Of a stretch of 32,000 bases of DNA, positions 21,572-29,840 are shown piece by piece. The stretch is taken from positions 30,001 through 62,000 of the forward strand of contig NZ_BCZP01000028.1 of NCBI RefSeq assembly GCF_001598795.1. Reading direction: 5' to 3'. The notes beneath the pieces are model-generated. The model saw only the letters and a list, made by a program, of their open reading frames with translations, was not told the DNA's origin and searched no databases. The stretch comes from Delftia acidovorans NBRC 14950 (GTDB lineage Bacteria > Pseudomonadota > Gammaproteobacteria > Burkholderiales > Burkholderiaceae_C). How positions within the stretch are numbered: the stretch's first letter is position 1; each line of letters begins with the position of its first letter. Made by a program: the position numbers and the translations under genes.

Positions 21572-21723
21572 GTCTGCTGCAATTCAAAAAGGCAAACGGG
21601 TCACGGTCCGGCGTTTACTCACTCGCCCATGTCTGTTGGTCCTAAGTCCCGCACCGGCCTCACAAGGGCTTCAGGCAAGGGGCACCCAAGGTTTTTCGTT
21701 AGAGAAATTCACAAAGGTTGATC

Positions 21724-23505
21724 ATGGAAATTTCCAAAGCCGAGTACTCCAGCGCGGCAGCAGCGGCGTCGCAGTCCCATGCACCCCAGGAGCTGATGGG
21801 CTCCGAGATCCTCGTCAAGTCCCTGCAGGCCGAAGGTGTCAAGCAGCTTTGGGGCTATCCGGGCGGTGCGGTTCTGTACATCTACGACGCCCTCTACAAA
21901 CAAGATTCCATTCAGCATGTGCTGGTGCGCCATGAACAGGCGGCAGTGCATGCGGCAGACGGTTTTGCCCGTGCCACGGGTGAAGTCGGCGTGGCCCTGG
22001 TGACTTCGGGTCCCGGCCTGACCAACGCCGTGACCGGCATTGCCACCGCCTACACCGATTCCATTCCCCTGGTCGTGATCAGCGGCCAGACCTCGACGGC
22101 CTACATCGGCACCGATGCGTTCCAGGAATGCGACACCGTCGGCATCACCCGCCCCATCGTCAAGCACAACTTCCTGGTGAAGGATGTGCGCGAGCTGGCG
22201 GACACGATGAAGAAGGCCTTCCACATCGCGCGCACCGGCCGTCCCGGCCCCGTGGTGGTGGACATCCCCAAGGACGTGTCCTTCAAGAAGGCGCTCTACG
22301 CAGGCTACCCCGACAAGGTGGAGATGCGCTCCTACAACCCGGTGCGCAAGGGCCATGCCGGCCAGATCCGCAAGGCGCTGCAGTTGCTGCTGGCCGCCAA
22401 GCGACCCTATATCTACACGGGCGGCGGCGTTCTGCTGGGCAATGCCTGCAACGAGCTGCGCACGCTGGTGGACATGCTGGGCTACCCGGTCACGCATACG
22501 CTGCTGGGCCTGGGCGCCTATCCGGCCAGCGACCGCAAGTTCCTGGGCATGCTGGGCATGCACGGCACCATCGAAGCCAACAATGCCATGCAGAACTGCG
22601 ACGTGCTGCTGGCGGTGGGTGCACGCTTCGATGACCGCGTGATCGGCAACCCCAAGCATTTCATGTCGGTGGAGCGCAAGATCATCCACATCGACATCGA
22701 TCCCTCTTCCATCTCCAAGCGCGTGAAGGTGGACGTGCCCATCGTGGGCGACGTCAAGGAGGTGCTGACCGAGCTGATCTCCATGATCCGCGAGGCAAGT
22801 GCCCGTCCCGACGCAGCGGCCCTGGGCCAATGGTGGGAGACCATCGAAGGCTGGCGCAGCCGCGACTGCCTGCAGTACAGCCGTGGCGATGGCTCGGTCA
22901 TCAAGCCCCAGTACGTGGTGGAGACGCTGTGGAACATGACCCGCGACGCCGATGCCTACATCACGTCCGACGTGGGCCAGCATCAGATGTGGGCCGCGCA
23001 GTACTACCGCTTCGACGAGCCGCGCCGCTGGATCAACTCCGGCGGCCTGGGCACCATGGGCGTGGGCCTGCCCTACGCCATGGGCATCAAGCTGGCCAAG
23101 CCTGAATCCGAGGTGTTCTGCATCACGGGTGAAGGCTCCATCCAGATGAATATCCAGGAGCTGGCCACCTGCCTGCAGTACAACACGCCGGTCAAGGTGG
23201 TGTCGCTGAACAACCGCTACCTGGGCATGGTGCGCCAGTGGCAGGAGATCGAGTACTCGGGTCGCTACAGCAGCAGCTACATGGACTCGCTGCCCAACTT
23301 CGTGAAGCTGGCCGAGGCCTATGGCCACGTGGGCATGCTGATCGAGCGCCCCGAGGACGTGGAGCCCGCCCTGCGCGAGGCACGCAAGCTCAAGGACCGC
23401 ACGGTGTTCATGGACTTCCGTACCGATCCCACCGAGAATGTGTTCCCCATGGTGCAGGCCGGCCGTGGGATCACCGAGATGCTGCTGGGAGCTGACGACC
23501 TCTGA
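21724..23505 (+). CDS. ilvB: Acetolactate synthase (acetohydroxyacid synthase) large subunit
   Basis: GSEILVKSLQAEGVKQLWGYPGG N-terminus and the ThDP motif GGLGTMGVGLPYAMG...LNNRYLGMV. AAGG Shine-Dalgarno 6 nt before ATG 21724; the track start 21718 is a TTG codon. Confidence 0.93.
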   Translation: MEISKAEYSSAAAAASQSHAPQELMGSEILVKSLQAEGVKQLWGYPGGAVLYIYDALYKQDSIQHVLVRHEQAAVHAADGFARATGEVGVALVTSGPGLTNAVTGIATAYTDSIPLVVISGQTSTAYIGTDAFQECDTVGITRPIVKHNFLVKDVRELADTMKKAFHIARTGRPGPVVVDIPKDVSFKKALYAGYPDKVEMRSYNPVRKGHAGQIRKALQLLLAAKRPYIYTGGGVLLGNACNELRTLVDMLGYPVTHTLLGLGAYPASDRKFLGMLGMHGTIEANNAMQNCDVLLAVGARFDDRVIGNPKHFMSVERKIIHIDIDPSSISKRVKVDVPIVGDVKEVLTELISMIREASARPDAAALGQWWETIEGWRSRDCLQYSRGDGSVIKPQYVVETLWNMTRDADAYITSDVGQHQMWAAQYYRFDEPRRWINSGGLGTMGVGLPYAMGIKLAKPESEVFCITGEGSIQMNIQELATCLQYNTPVKVVSLNNRYLGMVRQWQEIEYSGRYSSSYMDSLPNFVKLAEAYGHVGMLIERPEDVEPALREARKLKDRTVFMDFRTDPTENVFPMVQAGRGITEMLLGADDL

Positions 23506-23659
23506 GTATGGTCCCTTGCGGGATTTGCCCGGGTTCATTCCTGCCGCATCCGTTCCAGTAAGCCGTCCTCGAGGCGGCCCCTTTGACGAATCTATTGCCT
23601 GCCAAGCCCGACGTTTACCGGCGCCGGGGGAGGGCAGCGAAAAGAGGAATCTTTCTTTC

Positions 23660-24151: not shown

Positions 24152-25240
<1,089 letters not shown>

Positions 25241-25297: not shown

Positions 25298-25326
25298 AAG
25301 GCCACCCCGACGGGTGGCCTTTTTCG
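25298..25326 (+). terminator. Intrinsic terminator of ilvC
   Basis: 10-bp stem AAGGCCACCC (25298-25307) / GGGTGGCCTT (25312-25321) with a 4-nt loop, followed by a T run. Confidence 0.8.
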
Positions 25327-25450
25327 TGCAGGGAAGGGGTGCGGCGCGCAGGTACACTGACCCTTTCGGGGCGGCGCAGTCCGCTCCCTTAGAATACTAT
25401 CGTTTTAATAGCTGCCCGCGCCCGTAGGCGCTGTGCTGGAGGCTGGATTG

Positions 25451-26284
25451 ATGCAAAACCACAATGAGTCCAACGAGATTGAGGGCGTGGTGGTGCGCAA
25501 GCGCCGCAAGGGTATCTACATCCTGCCCAACCTGTTCACGCTGGCTGCGCTGTTCGGTGGCTTCTACGCCATCGTGATGGCCATGAATGGCCGCTTCGAA
25601 CTGGCTGCCGCAGGCGTGTTCTGCGCCATGGTGCTGGACAGTCTTGACGGCCGCGTGGCACGCATGACCAATACGCAAAGCGCCTTTGGCGAACAGATGG
25701 ACTCGCTGTCGGACATGGTGTCCTTCGGAGCCGCTCCGGCCTTGATCGCCTATGAATGGGCGCTCAAGGGCATTGGTCGCTGGGGCTGGATTGCCGCCTT
25801 TGTCTATTGCGCCTGCGCTGCACTGCGGCTGGCGCGTTTCAACGTGAATACCGGCACGGTGGACAAGCGCTGGTTCCAGGGCCTGCCTTCGCCTGCGGCG
25901 GCGGCGCTGGTCACGGGCTTCATCTGGCTGCTGGACGAGGCGGGCCTGCTGCGCGGGCAGGATGCCTGGCTGAGCTGGACGCAGATCACCTGGATCATGT
26001 TCTTCCTGACGTTGTACGCGGGCCTGACCATGGTCACCAATGTGCCGTTCTACAGCTTCAAGGACGTGCACTTCAAGAAGAGCGTGCCGTTTGCCGCCAT
26101 CGTGCTGATTGCGCTGGGCATTGCCATCATCAACATCCACCCGCCTATCGTGCTGTTCGGCGTGTTCCTGCTCTACGGTTTCTCGGGCTATGGCGTCTAC
26201 GCCTGGCGCAAGGCCAAGGGTCAGCGCACCAGCGTCATCAGCACCTCGACCGACGAGCCCGAGGAGCGCGGCCTGCACAAGTGA
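25451..26284 (+). CDS. pssA: CDP-diacylglycerol--serine O-phosphatidyltransferase
   Basis: CDP-alcohol phosphatidyltransferase motif DSLDGRVARMTNTQSAFGEQMDSLSD in a multi-pass membrane protein. GGAGG lies 8 nt before ATG 25451; the track start 25433 is GTG. Confidence 0.88.
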   Translation: MQNHNESNEIEGVVVRKRRKGIYILPNLFTLAALFGGFYAIVMAMNGRFELAAAGVFCAMVLDSLDGRVARMTNTQSAFGEQMDSLSDMVSFGAAPALIAYEWALKGIGRWGWIAAFVYCACAALRLARFNVNTGTVDKRWFQGLPSPAAAALVTGFIWLLDEAGLLRGQDAWLSWTQITWIMFFLTLYAGLTMVTNVPFYSFKDVHFKKSVPFAAIVLIALGIAIINIHPPIVLFGVFLLYGFSGYGVYAWRKAKGQRTSVISTSTDEPEERGLHK

Positions 26285-26335
26285 TGCGGCGCAGCATCTT
26301 CACAGCCTTTGTGAACCTGTGCTAAAGTCGTCCGA

Positions 26336-26389
26336 ATGCAATACCTGTCGCTAGCTCTACTACTGATGTCCAACGGGCAGAGACAGTAG
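26336..26389 (+). CDS. Putative leu leader peptide MQYLSLALLLMSNGQRQ (17 codons)
   Basis: ATG CAA TAC CTG TCG CTA GCT CTA CTA CTG ATG TCC AAC GGG CAG AGA CAG TAG. Five of the 17 codons are Leu, and three of those are CTA, which is visibly rare in the surrounding CTG-dominated genes. It lies in the pssA-leuA spacer directly upstream of a terminator hairpin. No strong Shine-Dalgarno. Confidence 0.55.
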   Translation: MQYLSLALLLMSNGQRQ

Positions 26390-26412
26390 CGCGCGCGTAC
26401 ATACCTACTTTC

Positions 26413-26450
26413 ACGGCCCGTTTGCACCAGCGACGGGCCGTTTTGCATTT
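26413..26450 (+). terminator. Attenuator terminator upstream of the first isopropylmalate synthase gene
   Basis: 9-bp stem ACGGCCCGT (26413-26421) / ACGGGCCGT (26433-26441), followed by TTTGCATTT. The 5' arm (GCCCGTT, 26416-26422) can alternatively pair with AACGGGC (26372-26378) inside the leader ORF. Confidence 0.68.
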
Positions 26451-26510
26451 GTGGGGTCGCTGGAGCAGGTGGGTCTTGTTTTTACCTAGACGATAGAAAG
26501 CACTTCAGCC

Positions 26511-28202
26511 ATGTTGCAAAACCCTTCGACCAAGTACCGTCCGTTCGCTTTCGCTCCCGTGCGTCTGCAAAATCGCAGCTGGCCCGACGCGACGATTACC
26601 AAGGCTCCGATCTGGTGCAGCGTGGATCTGCGCGATGGCAACCAGGCGTTGATCGAGCCGATGGACATCGATCGCAAGATGCGCATGTTCGAGCAACTGG
26701 TGAAGATCGGCTTCAAGGAGATCGAGGTCGGTTTTCCCTCCGCTTCGCAGGTGGAGTTCGACTTCATGCGCAAGCTCATCGAGGAAAACCGCATTCCCGA
26801 TGACGTGACCATCCAGGTGCTGACCCAGGCGCGCGAGCACCTCATCCGCCGTACCTTCGAAGCGCTCGAAGGCGTGCCCCGTGCCATCGTCCATCTGTAC
26901 AACGCCACCGCGCCCGTGATGCGCCGCGTGGTGTTGAACATGAGTGAAGACGAGATCGTCGAGCTGGCCACCACCAATGCCCGCATGTTCAACGAGATCG
27001 CTGCCGGCTACCCCCAGACGCAGTGGACCTTCCAGTACTCGCCCGAGATGTATTCGGACACCGAGCTGGAGTTTTCCAAGCGCGTCATCGATGCCGTCAC
27101 CGATGTATGGCAGCCCACGCCCGAGCGCAAGTGCATCATCAACCTGCCCACCACGGTGGAGCATTCCACGCCCAATCTGTTTGCCGACATGGTGGAGTGG
27201 ACGCACCGCCACATCCAGCGCCGTGATTCCATCGTGCTGTCCGTCCATCCCCACAACGATCGCGGCACCGGCACGGCCACGGCCGAGCTCGCGCTGATGG
27301 CCGGTGCCGACCGCCTCGAAGGCTGCCTGTTCGGCAACGGCGAGCGCACGGGCAACCTCGACGTGGTCAACGTGGCGCTGAACATGTATATCCAGGGCGT
27401 GTCGCCCGGGCTGGATTTCTCCGATATCGACGGCATCCGCAGCACGGTCGAGCATTGCAACCAGTTGCCCGTGCACCCGCGCCATCCCTATGTGGGCGAT
27501 CTGGTCTACACCTCGTTCTCTGGCTCGCACCAGGATGCGATCAAGAAGGCCTTCGCCGACCGCAAGGAAGGCGACGTCTGGGACATGCCCTATCTGCCCA
27601 TCGATCCCAAGGACCTGGGTCGCAGCTATGAGGCCGTGATCCGCGTCAACAGCCAGTCGGGCAAGGGCGGCATCGCCTATCTGCTTGAAAGCGAATATGG
27701 CCTCCAGTTGCCGCGCCGCCTGCAGATCGAGTTCAGCCAGGTCGTGCAGCGCGAGATGGATGCCAGTGGCAAGGAATTGGCTGCCGCCGACCTGTGGAAT
27801 CTGTTCCAGCGCGAATACGGCCTGCAATCCGTGCAGGCGCCGCACTACCGGCTGAGCGAGAACGATGGTGTGGTCAGCCTGTCGGCCGACCTGGCTGTCG
27901 AGGGCGGCAAGCGCACGGTCGAGGCCGAGGGCACGGGCCCGATCGACGCCTTCGTGCAGGCGCTGAGCGAGCACAGCGGCCGCGCGGTGCGCGTGCTGGA
28001 CTATGCCGAGCACGCCATTGGCGAAGGTGCCAACGCCAAGGCCATCGCCTATGTGGAACTGCGCGTGGATGAGTCCCACGTGTGCTACGGCGTCGGGGTC
28101 GATGCGAATATCGTCTCTGCCTCGTTCCGGGCCATCATGTCGGGCTTGCAGCGTGTTCCCTCCGCCGAGAATGCGGTGGAGCAGGAGGCGGTTGCCGCCT
28201 GA
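26511..28202 (+). CDS. leuA: 2-isopropylmalate synthase, long type (DLRDGNQ; actinobacterial/Pseudomonas-like)
   Basis: 563 aa with YRPF...[42 protein letters not shown], and a C-terminal LeuA allosteric/dimerisation region. Confidence 0.9.
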
Positions 28203-28214
28203 ATTTCGTTCCCG

Positions 28215-28247
28215 AGCCGGTGCAGCCACAAGCGCACCGGCTTTTTT
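28215..28247 (+). terminator. Intrinsic terminator between the two isopropylmalate synthase genes
   Basis: 9-bp stem AGCCGGTGC (28215-28223) / GCACCGGCT (28234-28242), followed by a T run (28242-28247). Confidence 0.8.
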
Positions 28248-28301
28248 CATCGCCTGCCCGTGGGCAGGGGCTTCGCATCCACAAGAAAGACGAGACTCCC
28301 C

Positions 28302-29840
28302 ATGACCGACCAATTGATCATTTTCGACACCACCTTGCGTGACGGCGAGCAGTCGCCCGGTGCCTCCATGACCCGCGACGAGAAGCTGCGCATCGCGCGC
28401 CAGCTCGAACGGCTGAAGGTCGATGTGATCGAGGCCGGTTTTGCGGCGAGCTCCAACGGTGACTTCGAGTCGGTGCAGGCCATTGCGCGCGCCATCAAGG
28501 ACTCCACTATCTGCTCGCTGGCGCGGGCCAATGACCGTGACATCGCCCGTGCGGCCGAAGCCCTCAAGGACGCCAACCGCGCGCGCATCCACACCTTCAT
28601 TGCGACCAGCGCGCTGCACATGGAGAAAAAGCTGCGCATGACGCCCGATCAGGTGCTGGAGCAGGCGCGCCAATCCGTGCGCTTTGCGCGCAACCTGATT
28701 GCCGACATCGAGTTCAGCCCGGAGGACGGCTACCGCAGCGACCCGGATTTCCTGTGCCGCGTCATCGAGACCGTGATCGCCGAGGGCGCAACCACGATCA
28801 ACGTGCCCGACACCGTGGGCTATGCCATTCCCGAGCTCTACGGCGCCTTCATCAAGAACCTGCGCGAGCGCGTGCCCAACAGCGACAAGGCGGTCTGGAG
28901 CGTGCACTGCCACAACGATCTGGGCATGGCCGTGGCCAACTCGCTGGCCGGCGTCAAGCTCGGCGGCGCCCGCCAGATCGAATGCACCATCAATGGCCTG
29001 GGTGAGCGCGCCGGCAACTGCTCGCTGGAAGAGGTGGTGATGGCCATCAAGACGCGCAAGGATTACTTTGGCCTGGACGTCAACATCGACGCCCTGCACA
29101 TCGTGGCCGCCAGCCGCATGGTCAGCCAGACCACCGGCTTCGTGGTGCAGCCCAACAAGGCCGTGGTGGGGGCCAACGCCTTCGCCCACGCCTCCGGCAT
29201 TCACCAGGACGGCGTGCTCAAGGCGCGCGACACCTACGAGATCATGCGTGCCGAGGACGTGGGCTGGAGCGCCAACAAGATCGTGCTGGGCAAGCTCAGC
29301 GGCCGCAACGCCTTCAAGCAGCGCTTGCACGAGCTGGGCGTGGAGCTGGACAGCGAAGCCGCGATCAATACCGCCTTCGCCGCCTTCAAGGAGCTGGCCG
29401 ACCGCAAGAGCGAGATCTTCGACGAGGACATCCTGGCCCTGGTGACCGAGCAGGACGCGCATCAGCAGGCCGACCCCTTCCAGTTCATCTCGCTGGCCCA
29501 GCAAAGCGAGACAGGTGAGCGCCCACATGCGTCAGTGGTGTTCAGCCGCGACGGCCGAGAGATCAAGGCCCAGTCCGACGGCAATGGCCCGGTCGATGCC
29601 TCGTTCAAGGCCATCGAATCCGAGGTGAAGAGCGGTGCCGAGATGCTGCTGTACTCGGTCAACGCCATCAGCGGCTCCACCGAAAGCCAGGGCGAAGTGA
29701 CCGTTCGCCTGCAGCGCAGCGGGCGCGTGGTCAACGGCGTGGGCGCCGACCCTGACATCGTTGTGGCTTCTGCCAAGGCCTATCTGAGCGCGTTGAACAA
29801 ATTACACAGCAATGCAGAGATCGTGGCTGCGCAGGGGTAA
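28302..29840 (+). CDS. leuA: 2-isopropylmalate synthase, short type (LRDGEQ; E. coli-like)
   Basis: 512 aa from ATG 28302 with [31 protein letters not shown], and the C-terminal regulatory domain ([12 protein letters not shown]...[23 protein letters not shown]). Confidence 0.9.

Follow-up and report, generated by a model that had tools for sequence, protein, structure and literature searches.

The spacer between pssA and the first of two isopropylmalate synthase genes of Delftia acidovorans very likely carries a leucine-responsive, ribosome-mediated transcription attenuator that controls the long-type leuA downstream, here named leuA1. Judged from sequence comparison and modelled RNA folds, this leader element would be an unannotated addition to the textbook class of leader-peptide attenuators, outside Rfam, with two unusual details: a sensor ORF that is probably leaderless and a covarying helix, here named helix D, located past the terminator. 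If so, the leader would be a new regulatory mini-gene and RNA switch for a widespread family of environmental and opportunistic bacteria, and it would link one of two tandem isopropylmalate synthases to leucine supply. All positions refer to the window, that is, the whole 32,000-nt stretch of DNA that was analysed.

Leader ORF and its conservation among Comamonadaceae

Two isopropylmalate synthase genes lie in tandem in the window, and the genes around the spacer were assigned as follows:

21718-23505, + strand: ilvI (NCBIfam)
24224-25240, + strand: ilvC (NCBIfam); ilvH was also assigned by NCBIfam, between ilvI and ilvC
25433-26284, + strand: pssA (NCBIfam), stop codon at 26282-84
26511-28202, + strand: leuA1, long ('yeast/actinobacterial') type 2-isopropylmalate synthase (TIGR00970, 772.8 bits versus a cut-off of 697.4)
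end at 29840, + strand: leuA2, bacterial-type leuA (TIGR00973, 700 bits versus a cut-off of 598.7)

The spacer from pssA to leuA1 is 226 nt long (26285-26510), with the leuA ATG at 26511. An initial annotation of this DNA had described in it a 17-codon ORF rich in Leu codons, and re-reading of positions 26100-26700 confirmed its sequence and all of its coordinates. The leader ORF and the promoter elements in front of it are:

26299-26304, + strand: -35-like TTCACA
26318-26328, + strand: extended -10 element TGTGCTAAAGT (TGnTAnAnT), from a promoter scan
26336-26389, + strand: leader ORF of 17 codons, MQYLSLALLLMSNGQRQ followed by TAG (ATG at 26336, TAG at 26387-89)

Five of the 17 codons are indeed Leu codons (CTG at 26345, CTA at 26351, 26357 and 26360, and CTG at 26363), and the avoidance of CTA in the flanking genes, also noted before, holds when counted, with a single CTA among 243 Leu codons in seven neighbouring genes and four among 754 (0.5%) in 20 high-GC3 ORFs of the window. 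From the codon usage of the window, the probability that at least three of five Leu codons are CTA is 1.5e-6.

A scan with one genome per species returned 80 loci with LeuA identities of 71-99%, essentially all of them in Comamonadaceae (the LeuA of the window is 99% identical to that of locus L001). The genera with loci are Delftia, Comamonas, Acidovorax, Alicycliphilus, Diaphorobacter, Variovorax, Polaromonas, Ramlibacter, Caenimonas, Xylophilus, Lampropedia, Vandammella and Allofranklinella, and a further search for LeuA homologues returned close Comamonadaceae relatives only and did not widen this taxon range. We aligned 74 distinct spacers between an upstream motif common to all of them and the leuA ATG. 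Throughout these 74 Comamonadaceae spacers the ORF, its ATG, the Leu run, the choice of CTA, the ACGGGC block, the TAG, the terminator and the U-tract are kept together, and because of this conservation in distinct orthologous spacers the leader element stands far beyond chance. Rfam lacks the element, and the 74 sequences would allow a covariance model to be made for its annotation.

The leader ORF has 16-18 codons with 3-7 Leu codons in 74/74 orthologues and ends with TAG in 72/74. Its length varies by whole codons only, and the distance from the stop codon to the terminator takes any value between 21 and 47 nt, in any phase. CTA accounts for 217 of the 328 leader Leu codons (66%), compared with 5 of 3133 (0.16%) in the adjacent leuA genes, and the CTA at 26357 is the invariant Leu codon among orthologues. 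In the 49 leaders of seventeen codons, codons 4-10 ((L/I)-S-L-A-L-L-L) vary mostly at the third position, Ala being written GCT, GCC, GCA or GCG and Leu alternating between CTA and CTG, and this wobble is the signature of a translated frame. Together with the in-frame indels and the fixed ATG and TAG, it supports translation of the leader ORF. The opposite pattern is found in codons 12-15 of the same leaders, where the third position is fixed; across the 74 leaders Gly is written GGG in 74 of 77 cases, versus 7.4% among leuA Gly codons, and the ACGGGC block is therefore constrained as RNA, at the nucleotide level.

These patterns also bear on the idea that the product of the ORF is itself functional, a small hydrophobic peptide whose gene has its own terminator and no part in control of leuA. 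In favour of this, the S-L-A-L-L-L core is conserved as amino acids. Against it, residues at both the N-terminal and the C-terminal end vary freely, the constraint on the C-terminal codons acts on RNA and not on protein, the use of the rarest codons would be unexpected for a functional peptide, and the ORF always lies directly upstream of leuA. We consider this explanation extremely improbable.

The region in front of the ORF suggests how its translation might begin. The T, G, T, A, A and T of the -10 element are invariant in 74/74 orthologues, while the DNA upstream is unconserved and the -35 matches are weak, with at most three of six positions in 50/74 orthologues. The leader ATG lies 6-10 nt 3' of the -10 element (7 nt in 59/74), and nowhere else in the 32-kb window is the -10 motif followed by a start codon. 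Transcription is predicted to begin at A26335 or A26336. A Shine-Dalgarno (SD)-like 4-mer precedes the leader ORF in 0/74 orthologues, compared with a purine-rich ribosome-binding site (RBS) before the leuA start in 69/74, located around 26494-26500 in the window. The putative transcript is unstructured over its first 30 nt, with a mean minimum free energy (MFE) of -0.75 kcal/mol versus -5.74 kcal/mol for the next 30 nt, and leader codons 2-4 have 39% GC. Given the spacing from the -10 element, the missing SD and the unstructured 5' end, the leader ORF is probably read from a leaderless mRNA. Leaderless translation is uncommon in Proteobacteria. A search of the literature returned no leaderless leader ORF described for Betaproteobacteria and no transcription start data for Comamonadaceae; the start, if confirmed, would give a rare proteobacterial leaderless sensor ORF.

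The position of this promoter speaks as well to a reading in which the hairpin downstream of the ORF simply ends or insulates transcription coming from ilv-pssA, with the ORF open by chance. An open frame of 17 codons is not rare by chance, and between the pssA stop codon and the hairpin there is no other terminator; however, the stretch from pssA to the hairpin includes a conserved promoter element, all 74 orthologues keep the ORF with its Leu run and CTA bias, and leuA would be left without a promoter of its own 3' of the terminator. With these points set against it, the insulator reading has very little to commend it.

An ORF of 75 aa on the opposite strand (26221-26448, - strand) overlaps the leader region and the end of pssA; it is very unlikely to be a gene, since the orthologous spacers show indels that are out of its frame. 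Four loci with unexpected titles (L040, Pantoea sp. 18069; L055, Herbaspirillum MAG; L077, Sphingomonas sp. NCPPB 2930; L029, Lysobacteraceae MAG) have typical Comamonadaceae leuA loci and leaders, and the leader peptide of L055 is identical to that of Comamonas testosteroni loci; these titles probably reflect contamination or mislabelling.

The most distant loci, L078 and L080 (MAGs with 71-72% LeuA identity), have a different Leu-rich upstream ORF of 43-44 codons, with 9-13 Leu codons and the ending ...LLLP(S/G)GQK (L078:2235-2370; in L080 about 330 nt upstream of leuA). In L078 this ORF starts 10 nt past TAAAGT, and in both loci it is followed by a conserved GGCTTCACGGGGCC...CCGTGACA, with no U-tract terminator. 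Leu-sensing upstream ORFs before long-type leuA therefore appear to recur in different forms.

Terminator, antiterminator and ribosome position

The RNA elements downstream of, and within, the leader ORF are:

26360-26389, + strand: segment 1:2 hairpin, CUACUG (26360-65) with CAGUAG (26384-89, including the stop codon), around UGUCC (26367-71) with GGGCA (26375-79)
26372-26378, + strand: AACGGGC, antiterminator 5' strand (segment 2), pairing with 26416-26422
26413-26450, + strand: intrinsic terminator with stem ACGGCCCGT (26413-21) / ACGGGCCGT (26433-41), an 11-nt loop and the U-tract UUUGCAUUU (26442-50)
26416-26422, + strand: GCCCGTT, antiterminator 3' strand (segment 3, within the terminator 5' arm)

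The 9-bp GC-rich hairpin that had been reported 23 nt past the leader stop codon, followed by TTTGCATTT, was found as described; its stem is perfect, with a free energy of -20.2 kcal/mol. The U-tract of the window is interrupted (UUUU GCA UUU). A simple terminator scan missed the hairpin because the 11-nt loop exceeds the 8-nt limit of the scan. Pairing of the terminator reaches 99.4% among orthologues, with compensatory changes at three pairs, for example C-G to A-U in 8 sequences. The complementarity of AACGGGC to GCCCGTT, on which the initial annotation had built its antiterminator, is exact, and the antiterminator segment of the window has a free energy of -15.9 kcal/mol. Its core, CGGGC/GCCCG, is pairable in about 100% of the 74 sequences and never varies, and because it is invariant, covariation cannot confirm it.

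The 1:2 hairpin was absent from the earlier description. It is present in the MFE structure of the leader RNA, with -9.0 kcal/mol on its own, and its CUAC/GUAG core is pairable in most orthologues. The inner UGUCC/GGGCA hairpin, which holds part of ACGGGC, is 92% paired, with a U-A to C-G exchange at the closing pair. As GUAG, which includes the stop codon, pairs with CUAC of the Leu run, this pairing probably accounts for the fixed TAG. Folded in full, the terminated leader RNA of the window forms the 1:2 hairpin plus the terminator, at -42.6 kcal/mol.

To relate these folds to the position of the ribosome, we masked the RNA that a ribosome would cover (A site + 13 nt) and predicted the fold of the nascent transcript as it stands before the terminator 3' arm has been made. 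The MFE structure contains the antiterminator in 69/74 orthologues when the A site holds the invariant CUA and in 66/74 when it holds the next Leu codon. A ribosome at the stop codon gives the antiterminator in 0/74, and without any ribosome 55/74 lack it. The truncated RNA of the window itself has the antiterminator in its MFE structure even with no ribosome. In the window, the antiterminator stays free when the ribosome stalls at 26351, 26357 or 26360, and a stall at the last Leu codon (26363) masks part of it. These masked folds lend in silico support to the earlier proposal that a stall at the Leu codons favours the antiterminator and a ribosome at the TAG favours termination. When the energies of the two alternative folds were compared, the terminator fold was favoured over the antiterminator fold by 8.1 kcal/mol on average in orthologues; the switch must therefore be kinetic, as in classical attenuators.

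In the mechanism that we propose, transcription would start from the extended -10 promoter at the AUG of the 17-codon ORF, or 1 nt before it. When charged tRNA-Leu is scarce, above all the reader of CUA, the ribosome would stall on the CUA-rich run (26351-26362) and melt the 1:2 hairpin, so that ACGGGC (26373-78) could pair with GCCCGU of the terminator 5' arm; with this antiterminator formed, the polymerase would read through into leuA. When leucine is plentiful, the ribosome would reach the UAG (26387) and cover ACGGGC, the 9-bp terminator would form and transcription would end near 26445-50. Should no ribosome load, the 1:2 hairpin would sequester ACGGGC, and termination would be the default. 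Helix D (26427-34 / 26456-63) would form in the read-through RNA only, beside the antiterminator.

Two further pairings were seen in or near these structures. In the MFE structure of the terminated leader, the 5'-terminal AUGCAA (26336-41) pairs with UUGCAU (26444-49) in the U-tract, and Comamonas has an analogous pairing, GCAAAAC/GUUUUUGC; this may be an incidental complementarity of A-rich and U-rich sequences. A pairing of the leader GUCGCUAG (26347-54) with the terminator loop is unsupported: 74% of cells pair in the right register, but covariation is about nil.

Helix D and comparison with known leucine leaders

Three conserved segments are left to describe, a block of alternating GC and the two strands of helix D:

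26390-26397, + strand: alternating GC block (GCGCRCGCG), directly past the leader stop codon
26427-26434, + strand: helix D 5' strand CCAGCGAC, made of the 3' half of the terminator loop and the first 2 nt of the terminator 3' arm
26456-26463, + strand: helix D 3' strand GTCGCTGG, starting 6 nt past the U-tract

The attenuation model leaves helix D unexplained. It is 94% paired, with compensatory changes in four of the six core pairs and with G-U pairs present; at one pair, G-C is found 35 times, A-U 26 times and G-U 10 times. It occurs in more than 15 sequence versions, such as CCAGCAAC/GTTGCTGG, CCTGCAGC/GCTGCAGG, GCTGGTG/CACCAGC and GTGCAGC/GCTGCAC. The G-U pairs argue for RNA and against a DNA palindrome acting as a protein operator. 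Helix D and the terminator stem could together form an H-type pseudoknot; however, in two loci (L014 and L019) helix D has 13 bp and spans the whole terminator loop, which argues for a fold that is an alternative to the terminator stem and not simultaneous with it. Since it lies beyond the termination point, helix D cannot affect what its own polymerase does there. Constrained folding places helix D immediately next to the antiterminator, and the gap to the terminator fold falls from 8.1 to 5.1 kcal/mol. A role as a relay to the leuA RBS was discarded, as the predicted accessibility of this site is the same in the terminator fold (0.53) and the antiterminator fold (0.55). Possible roles of helix D include stabilisation of the read-through fold, mRNA stability and protection from Rho, and a covarying helix past the terminator would be a concrete, testable addition to the attenuation model.

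In orthologues the GC block hardly varies. The antiterminator fold has it in its apical part, where it may form a small hairpin; other candidate roles are a pause element or pairing with CGGGC. RNAalifold proposed a CGGGC/GCGCG pairing, which is invariant and interrupted and which we regard as a possibility from modelling.

The initial annotation had likened the leader to leuL-type attenuation, and here the architecture stood and membership of the family did not: Leu-rich leader, antiterminator and terminator are all found, and there is no match to RF00512 at E<=10. A search of the 32-kb window against Rfam at the gathering threshold gave no Leu_leader (RF00512), nor did one of positions 26200-26600 at E<=10, and in the latter region no riboswitch or T-box family was matched, the hits being at chance level only (SNORD82 and CC0196, E about 1). 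As in the enterobacterial leuL-leuABCD leaders of E. coli and Salmonella and in LeuL of V. cholerae, a short Leu ORF written mostly with the rare CUA codon is found, and such use of rare CUA is characteristic of the leu leaders of Salmonella and V. cholerae (PMC2836559). The position directly upstream of an isopropylmalate synthase gene and the overlap of the antiterminator with an intrinsic terminator are also shared with enterobacterial leuL. In contrast with the latter, the Delftia leader has 17 codons versus 28 in E. coli leuL, shows no similarity of sequence or structure, has no SD and is probably leaderless, is followed by an extra helix past the U-tract and has as its putative target a long-type leuA outside any leuABCD operon.

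Parallels to single features are also found in Actinobacteria. The leuA of Corynebacterium glutamicum, also of long type, is likewise preceded by a Leu-codon leader, with four consecutive Leu codons (PMC4046766). The leader peptides of its leuA and ilvB are described as leaderless and made without a ribosome-binding site (Morbach 2000 as cited in PMC4046766; PMC11857589). The transcription start was mapped experimentally in C. glutamicum, whereas in Delftia it is predicted from sequence. Mycobacterial leaderless short ORFs with poly-Cys runs are reported to control downstream biosynthetic genes (Canestrari 2020, cited in PMC13236596) and resemble the Delftia leader in being leaderless, short and rich in the cognate codon; unlike it, these actinobacterial attenuators sense cysteine, and no canonical pair of intrinsic terminator and antiterminator is described for them.

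As in the Delftia leader, an upstream ORF with Leu codons precedes a long-type leuA in the actinobacterial LEU element, and in both a conserved pairing over a long range might make a pseudoknot. The LEU element is reported to have no intrinsic terminator and to have a base stem formed by its Leu codons and the leuA SD (Seliverstov et al. 2005, PMC1262725). The Delftia leader differs by having a terminator and no such base stem. A pairing of the Leu run with the leuA SD was rejected, as the duplex has -5.8 kcal/mol versus -7.4 kcal/mol with a shuffled RBS, and only 2/74 orthologues beat the shuffled control by more than 2 kcal.

For the LEU element, an RNA switch independent of the ribosome was once proposed, and the same could be imagined in Delftia, with the terminator/antiterminator pair sensing a protein, a tRNA or a small molecule instead of ribosome position, and with the ORF being incidental. 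Consistent with this, the leader ORF has no SD, the GC block and helix D are conserved as nucleotides with no role in the simple model, and Leu-codon mutants of the Streptomyces leader reportedly behave unlike the prediction of classical attenuation (PMC1262725). Against it, the wobble in codons 4-10, the length changes that are in frame only and the fixed ATG and stop codon argue for translation, and the extreme bias towards a rare codon would be meaningless if the ORF were not translated; moreover, no Rfam riboswitch or T-box was matched and no large conserved unpaired core is present. We therefore judge a switch of this kind to be unlikely, and we retain ribosome-mediated attenuation as the preferred reading.

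Within ribosome-mediated attenuation, we put forward tentatively, as a proposal that is somewhat more likely wrong than right, that Comamonadaceae have a distinct design, in which a leaderless sensor ORF occupies the 5' end and helix D serves as a fifth segment and post-decision layer, perhaps with shared ancestry with the Leu upstream ORFs of actinobacterial long-type leuA. If this were true, leaderless 70S initiation with no SD would tie the loading of the ribosome directly to promoter escape, and helix D would lock the read-through fold or make a pseudoknot with the terminator, thereby controlling the fate of the mRNA; such a layer would lie outside the textbook four-segment model. A literature search gave no description of this leuA leader element, and an earlier in silico prediction for beta-proteobacteria may exist.

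Neighbouring genes and elements

The putative gene under control of the leader element is leuA1. A terminator-like hairpin, AGCCGGTGC-N10-GCACCGGCT followed by TTTTTT (28215-28247, + strand; -18.3 kcal/mol), lies between the leuA1 stop codon (28202) and leuA2. It is kept in Delftia and Comamonas loci, with compensatory changes; Variovorax, Polaromonas and Ramlibacter lack it, and there leuA2 starts within a few nt of leuA1. With this second terminator-like hairpin 3' of leuA1, the attenuator in Delftia may therefore govern leuA1 alone.

Upstream, a leader like that of leuA was not evident before ilvI. The Rfam ilvH RNA (RF02993) was matched in the ilvI-ilvH spacer (23585-23652, + strand), with 92.7 bits versus a gathering score of 55.1, and was the sole Rfam hit of the window at the gathering threshold. 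The start listed for the ilvH ORF (23438) is too early, because the family match starts at residue 75. Directly 3' of ilvC there is a terminator-like site, GGCCACCCCGACGGGTGGCC followed by TTTTT (25300-25329, + strand), which suggests that pssA is not simply co-transcribed with ilvIHC. The leuA2 ORF is listed from a GTG at 28260, and its family alignment starts only at residue 15; the ATG at 28303, with AAGAAAGACGAGA upstream, is the likely true start of leuA2.
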